From Bacteroidota bacterium (GTDB lineage Bacteria > Bacteroidota > Bacteroidia > JABEUT01), in NCBI GenBank assembly GCA_013288205.1, contig JABDCH010000001.1, forward strand, positions 3,480 to 67,479: a DNA stretch of 64,000 nucleotides, given 5' to 3'. Positions 3,001-20,364 of this stretch are shown here, in pieces. The notes beneath the pieces were generated by a model. That model was given only the letters and a program-made list of their open reading frames with translations. It searched no databases and was not told the origin of the DNA. Positions within the stretch are counted from its first letter, which is position 1, and each line of letters starts with the position of its first letter. The position numbers were made by a program, and so were the translations under genes.

Positions 3001-3587
3001 ATCTGGTATGTTTTAGTATTTGCATCATTCGCCCCTTTTGTTACAGCACCTATGTAGCCTCCGTTAACACCGGTAATTCTATAAGCGGTCGTACTGGCAT
3101 TATTGGTTGCATAATAACCATACCAGTCACTAAGGTCGCCATTAGAAAAATCCATATTACTGCATGCCGGATTACAACTTGGAGGAGTATACGAAGGGGT
3201 TAGCTTAGGAGTTTGATACTTATTTTTTACTTTGATAAAATTATTGTATAGGGCCAGCAGCTTTTGCTTTTGGCTATTCATATACGCACCTGTGCCGGAA
3301 AGATTAGCCGTTCCGGCTTGTGTTTTGTTATACAATGCTAAACGGGCAGAATCAATAACAGGCTGGTAAAAATTAAGAAACGCCGCGAATTCTTTATCGT
3401 TTGCCTTTACCTGTTGTTGCAGCTCATCTAAAGTTGCATTCCACTGAATAGATAATTTTTCACTGCCATCGGTATCAGCTAAGGCCGAATACTGTGACCC
3501 ATGGGTATATACAGGAAAGTGAGTTTGCGCACTAAGGCCTAATGAAAAGAAGAATATTAAAACTATAACAGGTAATTTCCTTTGCAT
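1..3587 (-). CDS. SprB-repeat/PKD cell-surface adhesin paralog, N-terminal ~1195 aa only (3' end runs off the window edge)
   Basis: Open minus-strand frame from the ATG at 3585-3587 to position 1. The N-terminus MQRKLPVIVLIFFFSLGLSAQTHFPVYTHGSQYSALADTDGSEKLSIQWNATLDELQQQV closely parallels gene 3960-7943. SprB-type repeats (C..G..G....GG..PY.Y.W......T.L..G.Y.V.V.D..GC) are visible throughout. Confidence 0.8.
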   Translation of the reverse strand, partial: MQRKLPVIVLIFFFSLGLSAQTHFPVYTHGSQYSALADTDGSEKLSIQWNATLDELQQQVKANDKEFAAFLNFYQPVIDSARLALYNKTQAGTANLSGTGAYMNSQKQKLLALYNNFIKVKNKYQTPKLTPSYTPPSCNPACSNMDFSNGDLSDWYGYYATNNASTTAYRITGVNGGYIGAVTKGANDANTKTYQIKLTSKANNDWLLYNTFKTTMSQGSPWGTGNSVMIGDSTKVSTPYQGQVAILAQEFMVTPTTNSITYAYSVLLENPTHSYYQQPFFSVTVFDQNGDTIKNCGQYSVYSGPGLSGFKGFYDKANKDTIYWRNWTQVNVPLTSYVGQCVTIQFEVSDCELGGHFGYAYVDASCSEFAISANSPDGVICGKNGVISLYGPAGEKAYAWSGPKGGIVGNDTLQNVSVDSFGTYKLIITPVTGSLCKDTLTYIVKNRDTISTTASIVSNIACYGGVGSAITRPANGWGAYTYAWTPTGGKGATATGLSAGTYTVTVSDTNACSVTATVVITQPNKLAATISDYPATCGNNSGTATVSATGGVTQYAYAWTPSAETTVKATGLSVGTYTVTVTDQNHCTVTSSVKITQPPVVTATMGAITPVNCFGGNNGAAKVTPGGGASPYTYSWAPSGGTLVSASGLTAGSYTVTVSDTNGCTATASALITQPTLLTATISATNNILCNGGVGSSTVTAGGGVGPYGYSWAPSGGTSATGTGLSVGSYTVSVQDAHGCSATASAVITQPNVLTVNPFTTANVLCNGQSNGSAGQTTTGGTGPYNYTWTPAAGTMDTATGLTAGTYTLTIIDQHGCSASASTLVTQPTTLTVAASVTSNLICHGGNTGATSSTPGGGTSPYTYSWMPSGGTNSTATGLTAGTYTITVTDYQGCTASAAVTVTQPVALAVTPSVTKNVACNGGNGGATSAVASSGTGPYTYLWSPIGGSTNAATGLTAGIYTITLTDNCGASVSAAVTVTQPMVLNVPAYALMNVSCNGGKNAIVIDSAVGGTSPYTYVWAPGGATTQKVSNLSVGTYSVGVADLHGCTATSSVTITQPVVLSATVTSTRAFCNMPTGTASVIANGGTPAYTYAWTPSAAVGANATDLAVGTYSIVVTDNHDCSTSVSVTITQPSAVSATIKGVTNINCFPNGNDSLRATASGGLPPYTYLWSPSGQTEATVTHLVVATYTVTVT

Positions 3588-11959: not shown

Positions 11960-12210
11960 AGACATATAGAACCCTTCGGGTTCTATATTAGTAGCCACCG
12001 ATGTAATCGGTGGCAGATATAAACAGCACATATTACAACCCTGAAAGGGTTGAATATTAAATCATACAAATACCAACCTTTTATTCAACCCCATCGGGGT
12101 TGGGATAATATTCATTTGGTATTTCCACCGATGTAATCGGTGGCTACTCACATTAAAGCCCTCCGGGCTTATTTATTCTTCATTCTTAGTCCTGATAGCT
12201 ATCAGGATTG
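11960..12210. repeat. Array of ~7 REP-like palindromic hairpins (BIME-like cluster) adjacent to the RAYT gene
   Basis: Hairpins seen directly: atatagaaccc-ttcg-gggttctatat (11964-11989); gccaccgat-gta-atcggtggc (11994-12014); caaccc-tgaaa-gggttg (12036-12052); caacccc-atc-ggggttg (12086-12102); ccaccgat-gta-atcggtgg (12125-12143); agccc-tcc-gggct (12157-12169); perfect 16-bp palindrome cctgatagctatcagg (12191-12206). Confidence 0.8.
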
Positions 12211-12221
12211 CTCCTTCATTT

Positions 12222-13865
<1,644 letters not shown>

Positions 13866-17326: not shown

Positions 17327-17854
17327 TTATTTGAGGCGGGATCTCAACTGTTCAAGAAGATCCTCTTCGCCCCAGGGGCCATTATATTTAAGTCCATTAA
17401 TAAATAAACCCGGTGTTCCGTTAACACCACTCCTCACTCCGCTTTCAAAGTCGCTTTCTACTCTTTCAGAAAGGGATTCTTTTTGAATATCTTCACTAAA
17501 ACGATCCAACTCTAAGCCAATCTTTTTGGCGTATGCAAATAATGCTTCGGGAGTTAACCTGCTCTGGTGTTCATAAATAACATCATGCATTTCCCAGAAT
17601 TTGCCTTGCAATGCAGCCGCTTCGGCCGCCACAGCCGCATTAAAAGCATAGGGGTGTACTTCCGATAAAGGAAAGTTGCGGAAAACAAATCTCAACCCAG
17701 CTTTCAATTTTTTTTGAACGGCCTTTATAATTGGGTATGCTTGCCCGCAATAGGGGCATTGGTAATCGCCATATTCTAACAATTCTACTGCTGCTTTGTG
17801 ATCGCCCATAATGTGATCATTGCTGTTTACAGCAGGTATCAAATGAGAACTCAT
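17327..17854 (-). CDS. DsbA-family thiol:disulfide oxidoreductase (thioredoxin fold, CPYC active site)
   Basis: Motif YGDYQCPYCGQAYPI. 175 aa. Confidence 0.8.
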   Translation of the reverse strand: MSSHLIPAVNSNDHIMGDHKAAVELLEYGDYQCPYCGQAYPIIKAVQKKLKAGLRFVFRNFPLSEVHPYAFNAAVAAEAAALQGKFWEMHDVIYEHQSRLTPEALFAYAKKIGLELDRFSEDIQKESLSERVESDFESGVRSGVNGTPGLFINGLKYNGPWGEEDLLEQLRSRLK

Positions 17855-17864
17855 TGTATTTAAT

Positions 17865-18326
17865 TTATTGGTGGTTTAATTTTTCCAAGGCATCAAGTAT
17901 CCCATCGGCTCCGGGGTTTATGCCTACAGGAGATAAATAATTCCAACGAATGACTCCTTTATCATCCAGCACATATAATGCCCTCATGGATTCACCCTCC
18001 ACTTCATCATACACATTGTACAATTTTGCAACCTTCCCCTTAGGTTCAAAGTCTGCAAGCAAAGGGAAATGTAATTTACGGCTTTGATTAAAAGCCAGGT
18101 GGCTCCATTTGCTGTCTACCGAGATTCCTATTAGCTGTGCGTTGTGTTTGGTAAACAATTTCAACATTTCATTATACAGGGCCATTTGGTCGCTGCAAAC
18201 GGGACTCCAATCGGCAGGATAAAATGCCATGATTACATTTTTGCCAAGCAATTCGCTTAATTTAAGTTTCTGGTCGGGAGTTGAATTCAATTCAAATTCC
18301 GGGGCCTTTGTTCCTATTGATAACAT
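17865..18326 (-). CDS. Peroxiredoxin (AhpC/TSA-Bcp-like redoxin)
   Basis: MLSIGTKAPEFELNS...VIMAFYPADWSPVCSDQMALYNE places the peroxidatic Cys in the typical PxDWSPVC context. Confidence 0.85.
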   Translation of the reverse strand: MLSIGTKAPEFELNSTPDQKLKLSELLGKNVIMAFYPADWSPVCSDQMALYNEMLKLFTKHNAQLIGISVDSKWSHLAFNQSRKLHFPLLADFEPKGKVAKLYNVYDEVEGESMRALYVLDDKGVIRWNYLSPVGINPGADGILDALEKLNHQ

Positions 18327-18338
18327 ATTGATTGTATT

Positions 18339-18572
18339 TTATTGTTCGAAATTCTCAACTATTCCGGGGGGACGCAAATTCGCCTTATCCGGGTTTTTTC
18401 CTGCTTCCCTAAGGGCCCTCCGTTGATTTAGATAATCCCAACACTGGTCTAACTCTACCTTTATTTTCTGCAAGGACTGAATATCCTGCGCAGACAAATC
18501 TTCTTTCGCATACAAACGTTCTTCTTCATTCGTAAGCTTCATGATCTCTGATAACATTTGTTTATCTTCCAT
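18339..18572 (-). CDS. Small hypothetical protein co-transcribed with the redoxin genes
   Basis: 77-aa charged helical ORF, 12 bp upstream of the peroxiredoxin stop-side neighbour. Operon context only. Confidence 0.45.
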   Translation of the reverse strand: MEDKQMLSEIMKLTNEEERLYAKEDLSAQDIQSLQKIKVELDQCWDYLNQRRALREAGKNPDKANLRPPGIVENFEQ

Positions 18573-18725: not shown

Positions 18726-18809
18726 GTACCCGGAGTCGGAATCGAACCGACATTCTCGTGAAAGAACTGGTTTTTGAGACCAGCGCGTCTACCTATTCCG
18801 CCATCCGGG
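18726..18809 (-). tRNA. tRNA-Leu(CAA): tRNA-Leu (anticodon CAA), long variable arm
   Basis: The reverse complement reads GCCCGGATGGCGGAATAGGTAGACGCGCTGGTCTCAAAAACCAGTTCTTTCACGAGAATGTCGGTTCGATTCCGACTCCGGGTA. It has a 7-bp acceptor stem, an anticodon stem CTGGT/ACCAG with loop CTCAAAA, a T-arm GTCGG-TTCGATT-CCGAC, and a 16-nt variable arm. Confidence 0.85.
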
Positions 18810-18879
18810 CATGAAAAGGGGTTGCGAAATTAGAAATTTTTTTAACATACACGGATACAAGTTATGGAGTCTTTCACTT

Positions 18880-19203
18880 TCACTTATTGTCCCTGTCATC
18901 TGCCAATAAGTTATATTTATCAATTAGTTTTTGAGAGATTTCAGGATATCTTCTCAGGTTTTTTATATACATTCTGCTCTTCATTCTTTTTAGATGGCTT
19001 TCTATTTTCCTGGCCACACCAATTTCAAGATTATCTATTTGGAAAAATAATTCCCAATCAGCATACCTTGTAGTAAAACTTCCGGGAAAGCTCTTATTTT
19101 TATGATATTCAATTCTGGAGGATAGTTTTTTTGTCGAACCGATATAAAATTTATCTGCCACTGGAGAATAAAGAATGTAAACTGCTCCCATTAAATTATT
19201 CAT
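18880..19203 (-). CDS. GIY-YIG nuclease-family small protein
   Basis: N-terminal VYILYSPVADKFYIGSTKKLSSRIEYH matches the GIY-x10-YIG...R...H core. 107 aa. Confidence 0.8.
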   Translation of the reverse strand: MNNLMGAVYILYSPVADKFYIGSTKKLSSRIEYHKNKSFPGSFTTRYADWELFFQIDNLEIGVARKIESHLKRMKSRMYIKNLRRYPEISQKLIDKYNLLADDRDNK

Positions 19204-19207
19204 TTAT

Positions 19208-19330
19208 TTATCAACCAGTCATTTGAACTGGTTTTGATCCTAATGGTTATCGGGACAGCGCGCCTACCTTCCCGATAGCTATCGGGACCGCCATCCGGGC
19301 ATGAAAAGGGGTTGCGAAATTAGAAATTAT
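19208..19330 (-). repeat. Disrupted partial duplicate of tRNA-Leu (anticodon arm through 5' end plus ~30 bp of upstream flank), carrying an inserted REP-like palindrome
   Basis: tttgaactggttttgatcc...cagcgcgcctacct...cgccatccgggcatgaaaaggggttgcgaaattagaaat parallels 18761-18838 (gaactggtttttgagaccagcgcgtctacctattccgccatccgggcatgaaaaggggttgcgaaattagaaat). Extra segments interrupt it, including the palindrome cccgatagctatcggg (19271-19286). Confidence 0.7.
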
Positions 19331-19425
19331 TTTAGAACAAGCACCTACATTATGTTCCGGACAGGTTTTTCTAATTTTTTTAAAGCATACATACTAAACC
19401 CGAAGCTGCTCCGTTAACCACTTAT

Positions 19426-19803
19426 ATGAACCTCAACCCTCATAGTATGATAAATCGTTACTTAGTTGCATGCAGTGGCCTTTTAATAGCTCTGAACCAG
19501 TTATATATTCTGGGTTCCAATCATTTTATCATTTTCAATAATTCGTGGGTGATATTTGATGCTTTCCTGGCAAGCATATTATTCTTGACCGGCATATTCA
19601 ACAATAAATATTTCTACATCACCACCTTTGTAATATGCTGCCTCTTTTTATTGCTTAGCCTGCTGCGTTTTTATCATGTGCATATTTCACTTGCCAACCC
19701 ATTGAATGCCATATCATTTACACGGATATTTTTCCTTGCAATGGCTTTGTATGGTTGCATGAAGGGCTTTAAAGCCGGCGATTCGCACACAGTTATCTCA
19801 TAA
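19426..19803 (+). CDS. Hypothetical integral membrane protein (4 predicted TM helices)
   Basis: 125 aa, strongly hydrophobic throughout. No motif recognised. Confidence 0.4.
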   Translation: MNLNPHSMINRYLVACSGLLIALNQLYILGSNHFIIFNNSWVIFDAFLASILFLTGIFNNKYFYITTFVICCLFLLLSLLRFYHVHISLANPLNAISFTRIFFLAMALYGCMKGFKAGDSHTVIS

Positions 19804-20364
19804 CTGCTTTTTCAGCACGGGATATATCTCTTCCAAAAAGATAAAGCGCCATATACTCGCACTATCGGTATACCCGCCCGGGTGCACATATATAACATGG
19901 CTATTTCTATCAACTATTATGCTTGTCGGGTATCCCATACCTCTGTTCAATTGGTAACAGCCATCCTCATCTAAATGGGACACATTATACCCGATGTGAT
20001 ACTTTGTCTTGATTTGCTTTATGGTTGCATTATCGCCTGATGTGAGAGAAATAAATTGAAAATCGGGGTTGTCCTTTAGCGTGTCATATAACTTATTCAG
20101 CGCACGCATTTCAGCCATGCAGGGCGCGCAGGCAGCCTCCCACATATTGATGTACGTTACTTTACCTTTTAAACTCGCATTATCTACCACCCCATCGGCT
20201 CCTGCAGCCAAAAATGCAGGTAGGGGCTTATTAAGTACTTGTTGCTTCCATGAATTAAGAAGTGAATCTTCCTGGTGTTTATTTACGTCAACAGAGGATT
20301 GACCAAAACCAAATGAAGAACTGAGAAGAAATAGTATAATGATGTTATAAAACTTATAACTCAT
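19798..20364 (-). CDS. TlpA/ResA-like periplasmic thiol-disulfide oxidoreductase (thioredoxin fold, CAPC motif)
   Basis: Signal peptide MSYKFYNIIILFLLSSSFGFGQ. The motif YINMWEAACAPCMAEMRALNKLY has the WxxxCxxC layout typical of TlpA-like redoxins. Confidence 0.75.
   Translation of the reverse strand: MSYKFYNIIILFLLSSSFGFGQSSVDVNKHQEDSLLNSWKQQVLNKPLPAFLAAGADGVVDNASLKGKVTYINMWEAACAPCMAEMRALNKLYDTLKDNPDFQFISLTSGDNATIKQIKTKYHIGYNVSHLDEDGCYQLNRGMGYPTSIIVDRNSHVIYVHPGGYTDSASIWRFIFLEEIYPVLKKQL

Follow-up and report, generated by a model that had tools for sequence, protein, structure and literature searches.

Why should a nuclease gene lie between an intact tRNA gene and a broken copy of the same gene? 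The question is raised by a stretch of 64,000 nucleotides (nt) from a Bacteroidota bacterium (assembly GCA_013288205.1, contig JABDCH010000001.1, forward-strand positions 3,480 to 67,479), referred to below as the window, in which an open reading frame (ORF) for a small GIY-YIG protein is enclosed by tRNA-Leu(CAA) and a partial duplicate of it. A first-pass annotation of this DNA had offered two explanations: an element carrying the GIY-YIG gene was inserted at or into the tRNA gene with partial duplication of its target, or a tandem tRNA duplication was invaded later. Our comparison of related loci supports the first. In the family of loci described here, a GIY-YIG protein of about 95 amino acids (aa) is encoded between an intact tRNA or transfer-messenger RNA (tmRNA) gene and a disabled repeat on the same strand. 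The window locus probably belongs to a family of selfish nuclease cassettes, very small in size, that live in structured-RNA gene loci across Bacteroidota and are similar to the phage nuclease SegB but much smaller.

Structure of the locus and its empty sites

ARAGORN calls a single tRNA in the whole 64-kb window, the minus-strand tRNA-Leu(CAA) at 18726-18810; the first pass had recognized this gene, ending it one position early at 18809 and leaving its strand unstated. The second copy that it had described, 5' flank included, is recovered by a repeat finder: the longest piece pairs 18798-18844 with 19288-19334 (46/47 identical), and two shorter pieces lie in register, 18781-18794 versus 19256-19269 (13/14) and 18764-18774 versus 19225-19235 (11/11). 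As a sequence match, a 47-nt repeat of 98% identity inside 900 nt must be considered far beyond chance. The GIY-YIG ORF (18880-19203, minus strand) lies exactly between the two tRNA copies, as had been noted. On the coding strand, the order is ancestral 5' flank; leader (-34 to -1) and tRNA 1-13; the palindrome TCCCGATAGCTATCGGGA; tRNA 17-30; a decayed palindrome; tRNA 34-47; 21 nt; the GIY-YIG ORF; 35 nt; and the leader (-34 to -1) again, joined to the intact tRNA 1-85. The disabled copy (19225-19334) consists of the tRNA promoter/leader and tRNA 1-47, interrupted by two 18-nt palindromes whose pattern is expected 0.02 times in the 64-kb window. The first pass had also seen that the duplicate is split by extra segments including a 'REP-like palindrome' (REP, repetitive extragenic palindromic); this palindrome is not incidental, being the hallmark of the entire cassette family.

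Using the flanking ABC-transporter gene as query, we collected 80 related metagenome loci, 17 of which keep tRNA-Leu(CAA) beside the transporter. In 16 of these 17 there is one intact tRNA, no GIY-YIG gene and no palindrome; their transporters are 64-89% identical to that of the window. The remaining one, L122, is occupied, with the tRNA downstream of the ORF as in the window. L091, which has the AhpC-like gene (82% identical) in common with the window too, is an orthologous empty site. The 5' flanks of L091 and of the disabled copy in the window can be aligned over more than 100 nt, whereas similarity to the intact copy starts only at -34. Relative to this empty site, the window has in excess an ORF segment of about 380 nt, an 81-nt direct repeat (-34 to +47) and two palindromes. 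From the 16 empty relatives we conclude that the ORF segment and the target repeat were gained by the window. The alignment suggests that the copy beside the native 5' flank is the ancestral tRNA-Leu(CAA), which became disabled, and that a new copy with 34 nt of duplicated promoter/leader now serves as the gene. The first-pass annotation had asked for a comparison of orthologous loci, reasoning that two intact tandem tRNA genes with the GIY-YIG gene universally between them would speak for a simple ancestral arrangement; what the relatives show is a single tRNA.

With the window and L003 occupied in addition to L122, the locus displays the presence/absence polymorphism beside a conserved target gene by which homing endonuclease genes are recognized. 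In L003 the transporter is 87% identical to that of the window and the GIY-YIG protein only 63%, a contrast that suggests either independent acquisition or very fast evolution of the nuclease gene.

Several standard routes to such a structure were considered and rejected. There is no integrase in the insert of about 0.4 kb, and the neighbouring genes (ABC transporter, AhpC-like, DUF2630, DsbA) do not form a tRNA-targeting integrase island. An integrase att repeat regenerates the 3' end of the tRNA, whereas the window repeat comprises the 5' part and the promoter; the remark in the first pass that a 5' duplication is unusual for integrases was correct but becomes moot without an integrase, and the commoner layout of the family (58/68 loci) duplicates the 3' part. 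A tRNA group I intron was dismissed because Rfam shows no intron, fewer than 60 nt of non-coding sequence surround the ORF, and a separate intact tRNA is present. A known RNA family was likewise dismissed, the tRNA being the only Rfam family between 18000 and 20000 at E <= 1. The repeat structure would follow equally from a small circle integrating in the Campbell manner and from a target duplication with a long stagger; a circle junction was looked for and none was found.

The features of the locus are collected in Table 1. At the tRNA 31-33 site, where the palindrome of the window is decayed, L004, L007, L013 and L122 carry an intact one.

Table 1. Features of the tRNA-Leu(CAA) locus, in window positions
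Feature	Position	Strand	Basis
Intact tRNA-Leu(CAA), functional copy	18726..18810	-	ARAGORN; Rfam tRNA score 58.8 bits; identical to the tRNA of the empty-site relative L091
Duplicated promoter/leader (-1 to -34) of the intact copy, with TAATTTCGCA box	18811..18844	-	46/47 repeat; similarity to L091 starts here
3' spacer of the inserted segment, without counterpart in the empty site	18845..18879	-	Alignment
GIY-YIG nuclease gene; ORF of 107 aa, family-consistent start Met5 at 19191 giving 103 aa	18880..19203	-	Pfam PF01541
5' spacer of the inserted segment; hairpin AACCAGTTCAAATGACTGGTT with tRNA positions 40-47, just before the ORF	19204..19224	-	Sequence; RNA fold
Disabled copy, piece 3: tRNA 34-47 (anticodon loop and 3' strand of anticodon stem), 1-nt deletion	19225..19237	-	Repeat alignment
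Decayed second palindrome TCCCGATAACCATTAGGA, in place of tRNA nt 31-33 (GTC)	19238..19255	-	Repeat alignment; sequence
Disabled copy, piece 2: tRNA 17-30	19256..19269	-	13/14 identical to intact copy
Perfect 18-nt palindrome TCCCGATAGCTATCGGGA, in place of D-loop nt 14-16 (AAT)	19270..19287	-	Sequence
Disabled copy, piece 1: ancestral promoter/leader (-34 to -1) and tRNA 1-13	19288..19334	-	Repeat; contiguous with 5' flank orthologous to L091

The TAATTTCGCA box is kept in both repeat copies of the window, is present at empty sites too, and is found upstream of tRNA-Leu(CAA) in L002, L003, L004, L091 and L122; it resembles the Bacteroidota -7 element. Piece 1 of the disabled copy (19288-19334) probably drives transcription of the GIY-YIG gene today. 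The nuclease gene would then stand behind the ancestral tRNA promoter, with a palindrome-bearing tRNA fragment as its 5' untranslated region, and the working tRNA would be transcribed from the duplicated promoter or by read-through.

Thiol-redox genes flank the tRNA locus (17327-18572 and 19798-20364), with DUF2630, AhpC/TSA and DsbA-like genes on one side and another AhpC-like gene on the opposite side. Only in the window species does the DUF2630 cluster adjoin the tRNA. An exact look-up of the DUF2630 neighbour yielded no strain-level empty site, only same-species loci whose contigs are broken at the 47-nt repeat (L086 and L088) and one in a different context (L084), where the DUF2630 protein is identical; the latter indicates that synteny is broken where the tRNA ends on its 3' side. 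The short-read assemblies of L086 and L088 break exactly inside the 47-nt duplicated leader (positions 1-20 of each), and we attribute these contig ends to the repeat. Finally, the YIGST codons of the nuclease (ATATCGGTTCGA, 19134-19145) match the T-arm of the tRNA (ATGTCGGTTCGA, 18742-18753) at 11/12 positions. The match is probably due to chance, the probability of which we roughly estimate at 0.05; we take it as such because relatives linked to tRNA-Val do not have it.

The nuclease and its family

The window ORF matches Pfam PF01541 (GIY-YIG) with an E-value of 1.8e-8 and 35 bits, against a curated cutoff of 22.6, and its product is identical to a 103-aa protein in public data (P0001). An AlphaFold model (pLDDT 95.8) consists of one GIY-YIG domain followed by two short helices. 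Its best structural matches by Foldseek are UPF0213, Slx1, the catalytic domain of I-TevI and the N-terminal domain of UvrC; profile comparison to PDB entries returns 1zg2 (E 9e-5), 1ywl (1.2e-3) and Slx1 (4e-3). Among 50 relatives, Y5, Y16, G18, H30 and E64 are invariant and R26 nearly so, and Y5, Y16, R26, H30 and E64 align with the GIY-YIG catalytic set. The modelled fold, the motifs and the predicted catalytic residues place the protein in the GIY-YIG nuclease superfamily, as a minimal domain closest to Slx1/UPF0213 (COG2827-like), while its remote similarity to that group (about 24% identity) marks a distinct subfamily.

The C-terminal sequence-specific DNA-binding domain of I-TevI/Seg-type enzymes, which total about 200-270 aa, is absent from these proteins of 94-107 aa. 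The NCBIfam model for group I intron endonucleases reaches 27 bits, below its cutoff of 56, and covers just the first 35 residues. We did not retain SegB family membership, as only the motif (14 columns) aligns with T4 SegB, nor a known defence system, PADLOC giving only a marginal match (E 0.003). A phage origin was also discarded: the protein has no PHROG match, and the searches found no relatives in IMG/VR contigs and no tblastn match in 50,697 phage records.

A profile-free search at E <= 1e-3 gave 713 cluster representatives (50% identity) of relatives of about 95 aa. Scanning one genome per species with a 50-sequence alignment as query, we matched at least 570 loci among species-representative genomes. 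Cultured carriers are among the matches: Pedobacter helvus P-25, P. psychrodurus RP-3-21, P. ginsengiterrae JCM 17338, Aequorivita marina S2608 and Brumimicrobium glaciale IC156. The locus counts that follow are from the 80 best matching loci, 79 of which are non-redundant. They are overwhelmingly from Bacteroidota (Flavobacteriales, Chitinophagaceae, Sphingobacteriaceae, Cytophagales and some Bacteroidales); two of these contigs are labelled otherwise, L005 as a metagenome-assembled genome of Alphaproteobacteria and L043 as Bifidobacterium sp.

The architecture of the window locus recurs throughout. An intact tRNA or tmRNA gene lies on the same strand within 500 nt of the ORF in 68 of 79 loci, and eight of the other 11 reach a contig end. 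The intact gene is upstream of the ORF in 58/68 (layout A) and downstream, as in the window, in 10/68 (layout B), and a palindrome occurs within 150 nt of the ORF in 71/79 loci. Host genes are tRNA-Leu (CAA, TAA, GAG, TAG), Val-GAC, Asn, Phe, Thr, Met and tmRNA. Across the ORF from the intact gene, every locus has a further copy of that gene, partial or complete and 95-100% identical; partial copies are always of the same tRNA species as the intact neighbour, and in many loci the repeat includes species-specific flanks. The palindrome mostly begins 11-20 nt past the end of the protein match in layout A, where it supplies the stop codon in some lineages, and ends 16-72 nt ahead of the ATG in layout B.

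These DNA motifs also find their way into annotations. Among relatives, many gene calls carry N- or C-terminal extensions that are translated DNA motifs: the palindrome gives 'PIAIG' in one frame and 'SPDSYRE' in another, a tRNA-Leu gives 'AELVDALVS...GSTPA', and '...GSSR*' runs from the T-arm into the TAG of the palindrome. In L018, L025, L069 and L017, ARAGORN calls the palindrome-bearing copy as a second tRNA-Leu.

Two loci, L080 (2400-3663) and L054 (46-704), have tmRNA (ssrA) as host; L080 contains two tandem GIY-YIG copies, each after a palindrome-interrupted copy of the tmRNA 5' end. Intact tandem GIY-YIG pairs are also seen in L049, L064, L065 and L071, and degraded or partial extra copies stand beside intact ones in L029 (2104-2378), L043 (3051-3272) and L055 (2220-2339), a combination that indicates local amplification followed by decay. 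In L069 (2257-2372), the intact tRNA comes directly after a tandem pair of 57-nt units that each combine tRNA-Leu 1-13, palindrome, tRNA 17-25 and leader. Similar arrays of palindromes and fragments occur in L027 (seven palindromes), L024, L073 and L075.

Did the cassette arrive once and stay, or has it moved? In a rough UPGMA grouping over about 94 residues, protein clusters of at least 55% identity mix tRNA species and both layouts, and both layouts occur at one orthologous Chitinophagaceae locus (Val-TAC...Val-GAC). This mixture implies that the cassette moved between host genes and was flanked each time by pieces of the local gene. How the duplication and the ORF are related is best seen in a young example, L069, where the repeat is 118 nt long and 100% identical: only 6 nt and the ORF lie between the two repeats, and the stop codon abuts tRNA position ~7. 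At this junction, duplication and ORF insertion look like a single event, which disfavours the other proposal of the first pass, a tandem tRNA duplication invaded at a later time.

A more ordinary history can be imagined, in which an old tandem tRNA-Leu duplication has one decaying copy and a housekeeping YhbQ-like GIY-YIG gene in between, or in which the locus is the scar of an integrase island. Tandem tRNA genes are indeed common, and the same layout exists at the same locus in L002, L003 and L122. Such a history would not give a single tRNA without ORF in 16 close relatives, nor the same architecture at nine other tRNA species and tmRNA, each with fragments of the local gene, nor an ORF placed exactly at the duplication junction as in L069. 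The divergence of the L003 nuclease relative to its transporter and the size of the inserted segment, which has no integrase, speak against it as well. We consider it highly improbable; it is already contradicted by the empty sites and by the distribution over many tRNAs.

The 18-nt palindrome

The 80 GIY-YIG loci contain 157 palindromes, against 2 in about 470 kb of Bacteroidota loci that are GIY-less, and 80 of the 157 are the exact 18-mer TCCCGATAGCTATCGGGA. The palindrome is located inside the disabled copy. Where both flanks could be mapped onto the intact neighbour, the 18-nt unit stands in place of exactly 3 nt in 66 of 73 cases, within a hairpin loop or at its margin. The same sites recur across unrelated tRNAs: D-loop positions 14-16 (between 13 and 17), the junction between 30 and 34, the T-loop and the 5' side of the T-arm. 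Sequence contexts are gctc[AGT]tgg and ggcgg[AAT]tgg at the D-loop site, ggttcg[ANT]cc at the T-loop site and, in the anticodon arm, gctg[GTC]tcaaa in Leu-CAA and ctc[ATAAT]ctg in Met. In tmRNA loci the palindrome replaces GTT in the copy of the tmRNA 5' end. Variation is mostly limited to the central 4 nt and to outer-pair changes that preserve pairing: the tally for 40 variants is 21 compensated, 8 G-T and 20 broken. This pattern points to selection for symmetry or hairpin formation together with sequence-specific recognition.

Two explanations of the palindrome itself were discarded. It is not a Bacteroidetes LexA/SOS box. Nor is it a transposon footprint, that is, two joined 9-bp terminal inverted repeats of an ORF-carrying transposon, since no solo half-palindromes were found flanking the ORFs of the related loci.

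A reading modelled on REPs and their associated tyrosine transposases (RAYTs) gives the palindrome a more active part. The locus would be a two-part system in which the palindrome is a minimal mobile hairpin element and the GIY-YIG protein, as a nuclease specific for both structure and sequence, mobilizes it into stem-loop junctions near its own gene. Folded single-stranded DNA would be the target, and the tRNA duplications and the ORF placement would be by-products of breaks, through segmental amplification like that of SegB, and not of homing. This agrees with a palindrome that is nearly invariant across orders and that sits at the stem-loop junctions of unrelated sequences: one copy occupies the loop of a terminator hairpin (L064) and another an internal hairpin of the functional tmRNA of L080, the tmRNA of L054 having none. 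Occupancy is polymorphic, L122 lacking the D-loop palindrome of the window; arrays reach seven palindromes (L027); closing stems of at least 5 bp are enriched at palindrome flanks (41% versus 21% of control positions); and Slx1 and UPF0213, the solved relatives nearest to the protein, come from the superfamily's structure-specific branch. On the other hand, the palindromes are not dispersed, since almost every one is found no more than a few hundred nt from a GIY-YIG gene and the window has a single extra variant; GIY-YIG enzymes cleave DNA by hydrolysis and have no known joining activity; replacement of 3 nt instead of a target duplication matches no known transposition chemistry; and the ORF is not flanked by half-palindromes. 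We regard this REP/RAYT-like reading as somewhat doubtful.

In a related and bolder proposal, which we hold only tentatively, the minimal GIY-YIG nuclease would recognize the TCCCGATAGCTATCGGGA hairpin and drive its insertion into stem-loop junctions of structured-RNA genes with replacement of 3 nt, while the nuclease gene would spread by duplicating its tRNA target. This would be an undescribed mobile system, and if true it would mean structure-guided insertion of DNA without transposase or recombinase.

The palindrome might also act at the RNA level. Palindrome-bearing tRNA fragments would then be decoy or antitoxin-like RNAs, in the style of type III toxin-antitoxin systems, or hairpins that stabilize or process the nuclease mRNA, and the locus would be an addiction or defence module. 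ORF and tRNA are co-oriented in all loci but one and often 14-50 nt apart, which implies co-transcription; tandem arrays of fragment and palindrome (L069, L027, L024) resemble antitoxin RNA repeats; the palindrome-bearing leader of the window's GIY-YIG gene has a stable predicted fold (-35 kcal/mol, z = -2.8); and the loop nucleotides replaced are those attacked by tRNA-cleaving enzymes. This function seems improbable to us. The PADLOC match is marginal and Rfam has no family here, the palindrome can be before or after the ORF and at differing distances from it, and a decoy would not explain palindromes in a terminator loop and a working tmRNA. Empty sites and host-gene switching point to DNA mobility, and to our knowledge GIY-YIG domains are DNases.

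Elsewhere in the window there is only one further copy, a variant palindrome with two pairing-preserving changes (TCCTGATAGCTATCAGGA, 12190-12207). It lies about 15 nt downstream of the stop codon of a minus-strand ORF of 543 aa (12222-13853), far from GIY-YIG genes, and may be a dispersed or terminator-loop copy. The nearby intergenic segment 11978-12160 contains two exact copies of a 20-nt hairpin, CCACCGATGTAATCGGTGGC (11995-12014 and 12125-12144), inside 36-nt inverted arms, with further small palindromes at 12031-12107. CCACCGATGTAATCGGTGGC and the GIY-YIG-linked palindrome have a common CCGAT..ATCGG core, a pattern found 4 times in the window against 0.22 expected.

Proposed mechanism and known systems

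How could such cassettes propagate? Our preferred scheme, a homing process like that of SegB, starts from what is established: the architecture of the loci, their empty sites, host-gene switching, the 3-nt replacement rule and the linkage of palindrome and ORF. By analogy with phage SegB, the nuclease would cut the DNA of tRNA genes in or next to the D-, anticodon- and T-loops. Repair by recombination from a cassette-bearing allele, with the intact tRNA copy and the remnant as the two homology arms, would copy the ORF into the cut gene and duplicate the target, one working tRNA being kept. The architecture could in this way result from a single break in a naive gene. As the nuclease gene is on the same strand as the tRNA, the tRNA promoter can serve for its transcription. 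Under this scheme the remnant would have to be disabled, since recombination between two intact repeats would tend to remove the ORF; the 18-nt palindrome, replacing 3 nt at cut sites of the surplus copy, would both destroy the cut site and shorten the repeat homology.

Several points weigh against this scheme. Cleavage by members of the family is deduced from the SegB analogy. In the structural model the protein has no DNA-binding domain, unlike characterized homing endonucleases, and no homologues were found in viral contigs (IMG/VR) or phage genomes (50,697 records). The intact tRNA copy of the window is identical to the naive target in L091, so that it is not protected from the proposed cleavage. 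The diversity of sites, among them tRNAs, a terminator loop and an internal loop of tmRNA, appears to suit a structure-directed activity better than a sequence-specific homing enzyme. Destruction of a cut site would not need one conserved 18-mer throughout a phylum, and the conservation of the palindrome and its presence in a working tmRNA (L080) suggest that it is in itself a recognized or mobile unit. It is because the intact copy is cleavable, the sites are diverse and the 18-mer is conserved across the phylum that we keep the REP/RAYT-like reading as a strong rival.

If selfish cassettes of this kind are confirmed, a very small self-propagating DNA element, with about 0.3 kb of coding sequence and an 18-nt hairpin, is abundant across a major bacterial phylum, under no other present annotation than 'GIY-YIG nuclease family protein'. 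The SegB principle, in which break-induced duplication remodels tRNA loci, would extend from phages to bacterial chromosomes. The cassette would also account for the tRNA pseudogenes that recur at these loci, for the spurious calls of a second tRNA, for gene calls extended too far at the N- or C-terminus and for the breaks in assemblies. The rule of 18 nt in and 3 nt out at hairpin junctions would point to a novel DNA-insertion chemistry or repair pathway, and a compact nuclease of about 95 aa, structure- or sequence-specific and with a defined 18-bp site, could be of practical interest. We found no description of the cassette or palindrome system in the literature searched, which comprised open-access papers and bioRxiv and included the palindrome sequence as a query, an earlier description elsewhere being possible.

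The closest functional parallel is SegB. In phage T6, this GIY-YIG nuclease is encoded among tRNA genes and cuts inside them, with a preferred motif, RAWTSGAAC, whose complement GTTCSAWTY is the tRNA T-loop; its nuclease activity and homologous recombination lead to tandem amplification of segB plus a tRNA gene, and it is associated with many tRNA isotypes (Chihara et al. 2026, PMC13096335). In our family, the palindrome at the T-loop takes the place of the 'AWT' in this motif. Both systems have GIY-YIG nuclease genes among tRNA genes of various isotypes, and both show nuclease-tRNA duplications. SegB, however, is phage-borne and has 221 aa with a C-terminal DNA-binding part, whereas the cassette protein is chromosomal, has about 95 aa with the catalytic domain only and shares just the GIY..YIG motif (hhalign E 0.07 with T4 SegB). 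SegB loci also lack a conserved palindrome and disabled target copies.

In protein terms the nearest relatives are the stand-alone UPF0213 (YhbQ, BH0048, EF2693) and Slx1-like proteins, which have the same minimal architecture of about 100 aa and give the best sequence and structure matches, although at about 24% identity the match is at superfamily level only. A 2006 survey of GIY-YIG proteins mentions no linkage to tRNA genes or palindromes, a TrmH fusion being its sole hint of an RNA link (Dunin-Horkawicz 2006, PMC1564403). With REP/RAYT systems (REPtrons), the cassettes have in common a short conserved palindrome that clusters around a presumed nuclease gene and whose hairpin symmetry is maintained. 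RAYTs, however, are HUH/Y1 enzymes, and REPs are intergenic and dispersed in tens to hundreds of copies; here there is neither an HUH/Y1 transposase nor genome-wide dispersal, the enzyme being GIY-YIG and the palindromes lying beside its gene, inside copies of RNA genes.

Fungal mitochondria offer a further parallel. A mobile GIY-YIG ORF in the Allomyces mitochondrial atp6 gene was reportedly described by Paquin et al. in 1994 and 2000, and free-standing homing endonuclease genes of fungal mitochondria leave part of the host gene in duplicate, double-hairpin elements being found close by. As in our cassettes, a mobile ORF enters an essential gene, a replacement part keeps one copy functional, the displaced fragment remains and short mobile hairpins are near; the fungal systems differ in being organellar, with a protein-coding host gene, larger ORFs and other hairpins that are not reported to replace 3 nt in loops. 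In phage T4, the homing endonuclease gene mobA and the 50-nt insert of gene 60, which disrupts the target, act as one cassette. This likewise couples a nuclease gene to a short insertion interrupting the target in a host gene, but the insert is single and non-palindromic and lies in a protein-coding gene, where it is dealt with by ribosome bypass, and there is no target duplication. Set against these systems, the cassette is of a known kind, a GIY-YIG nuclease gene that is free-standing and linked to tRNA genes; what sets it apart is the 18-nt palindrome and the rule of 18 nt in and 3 nt out.

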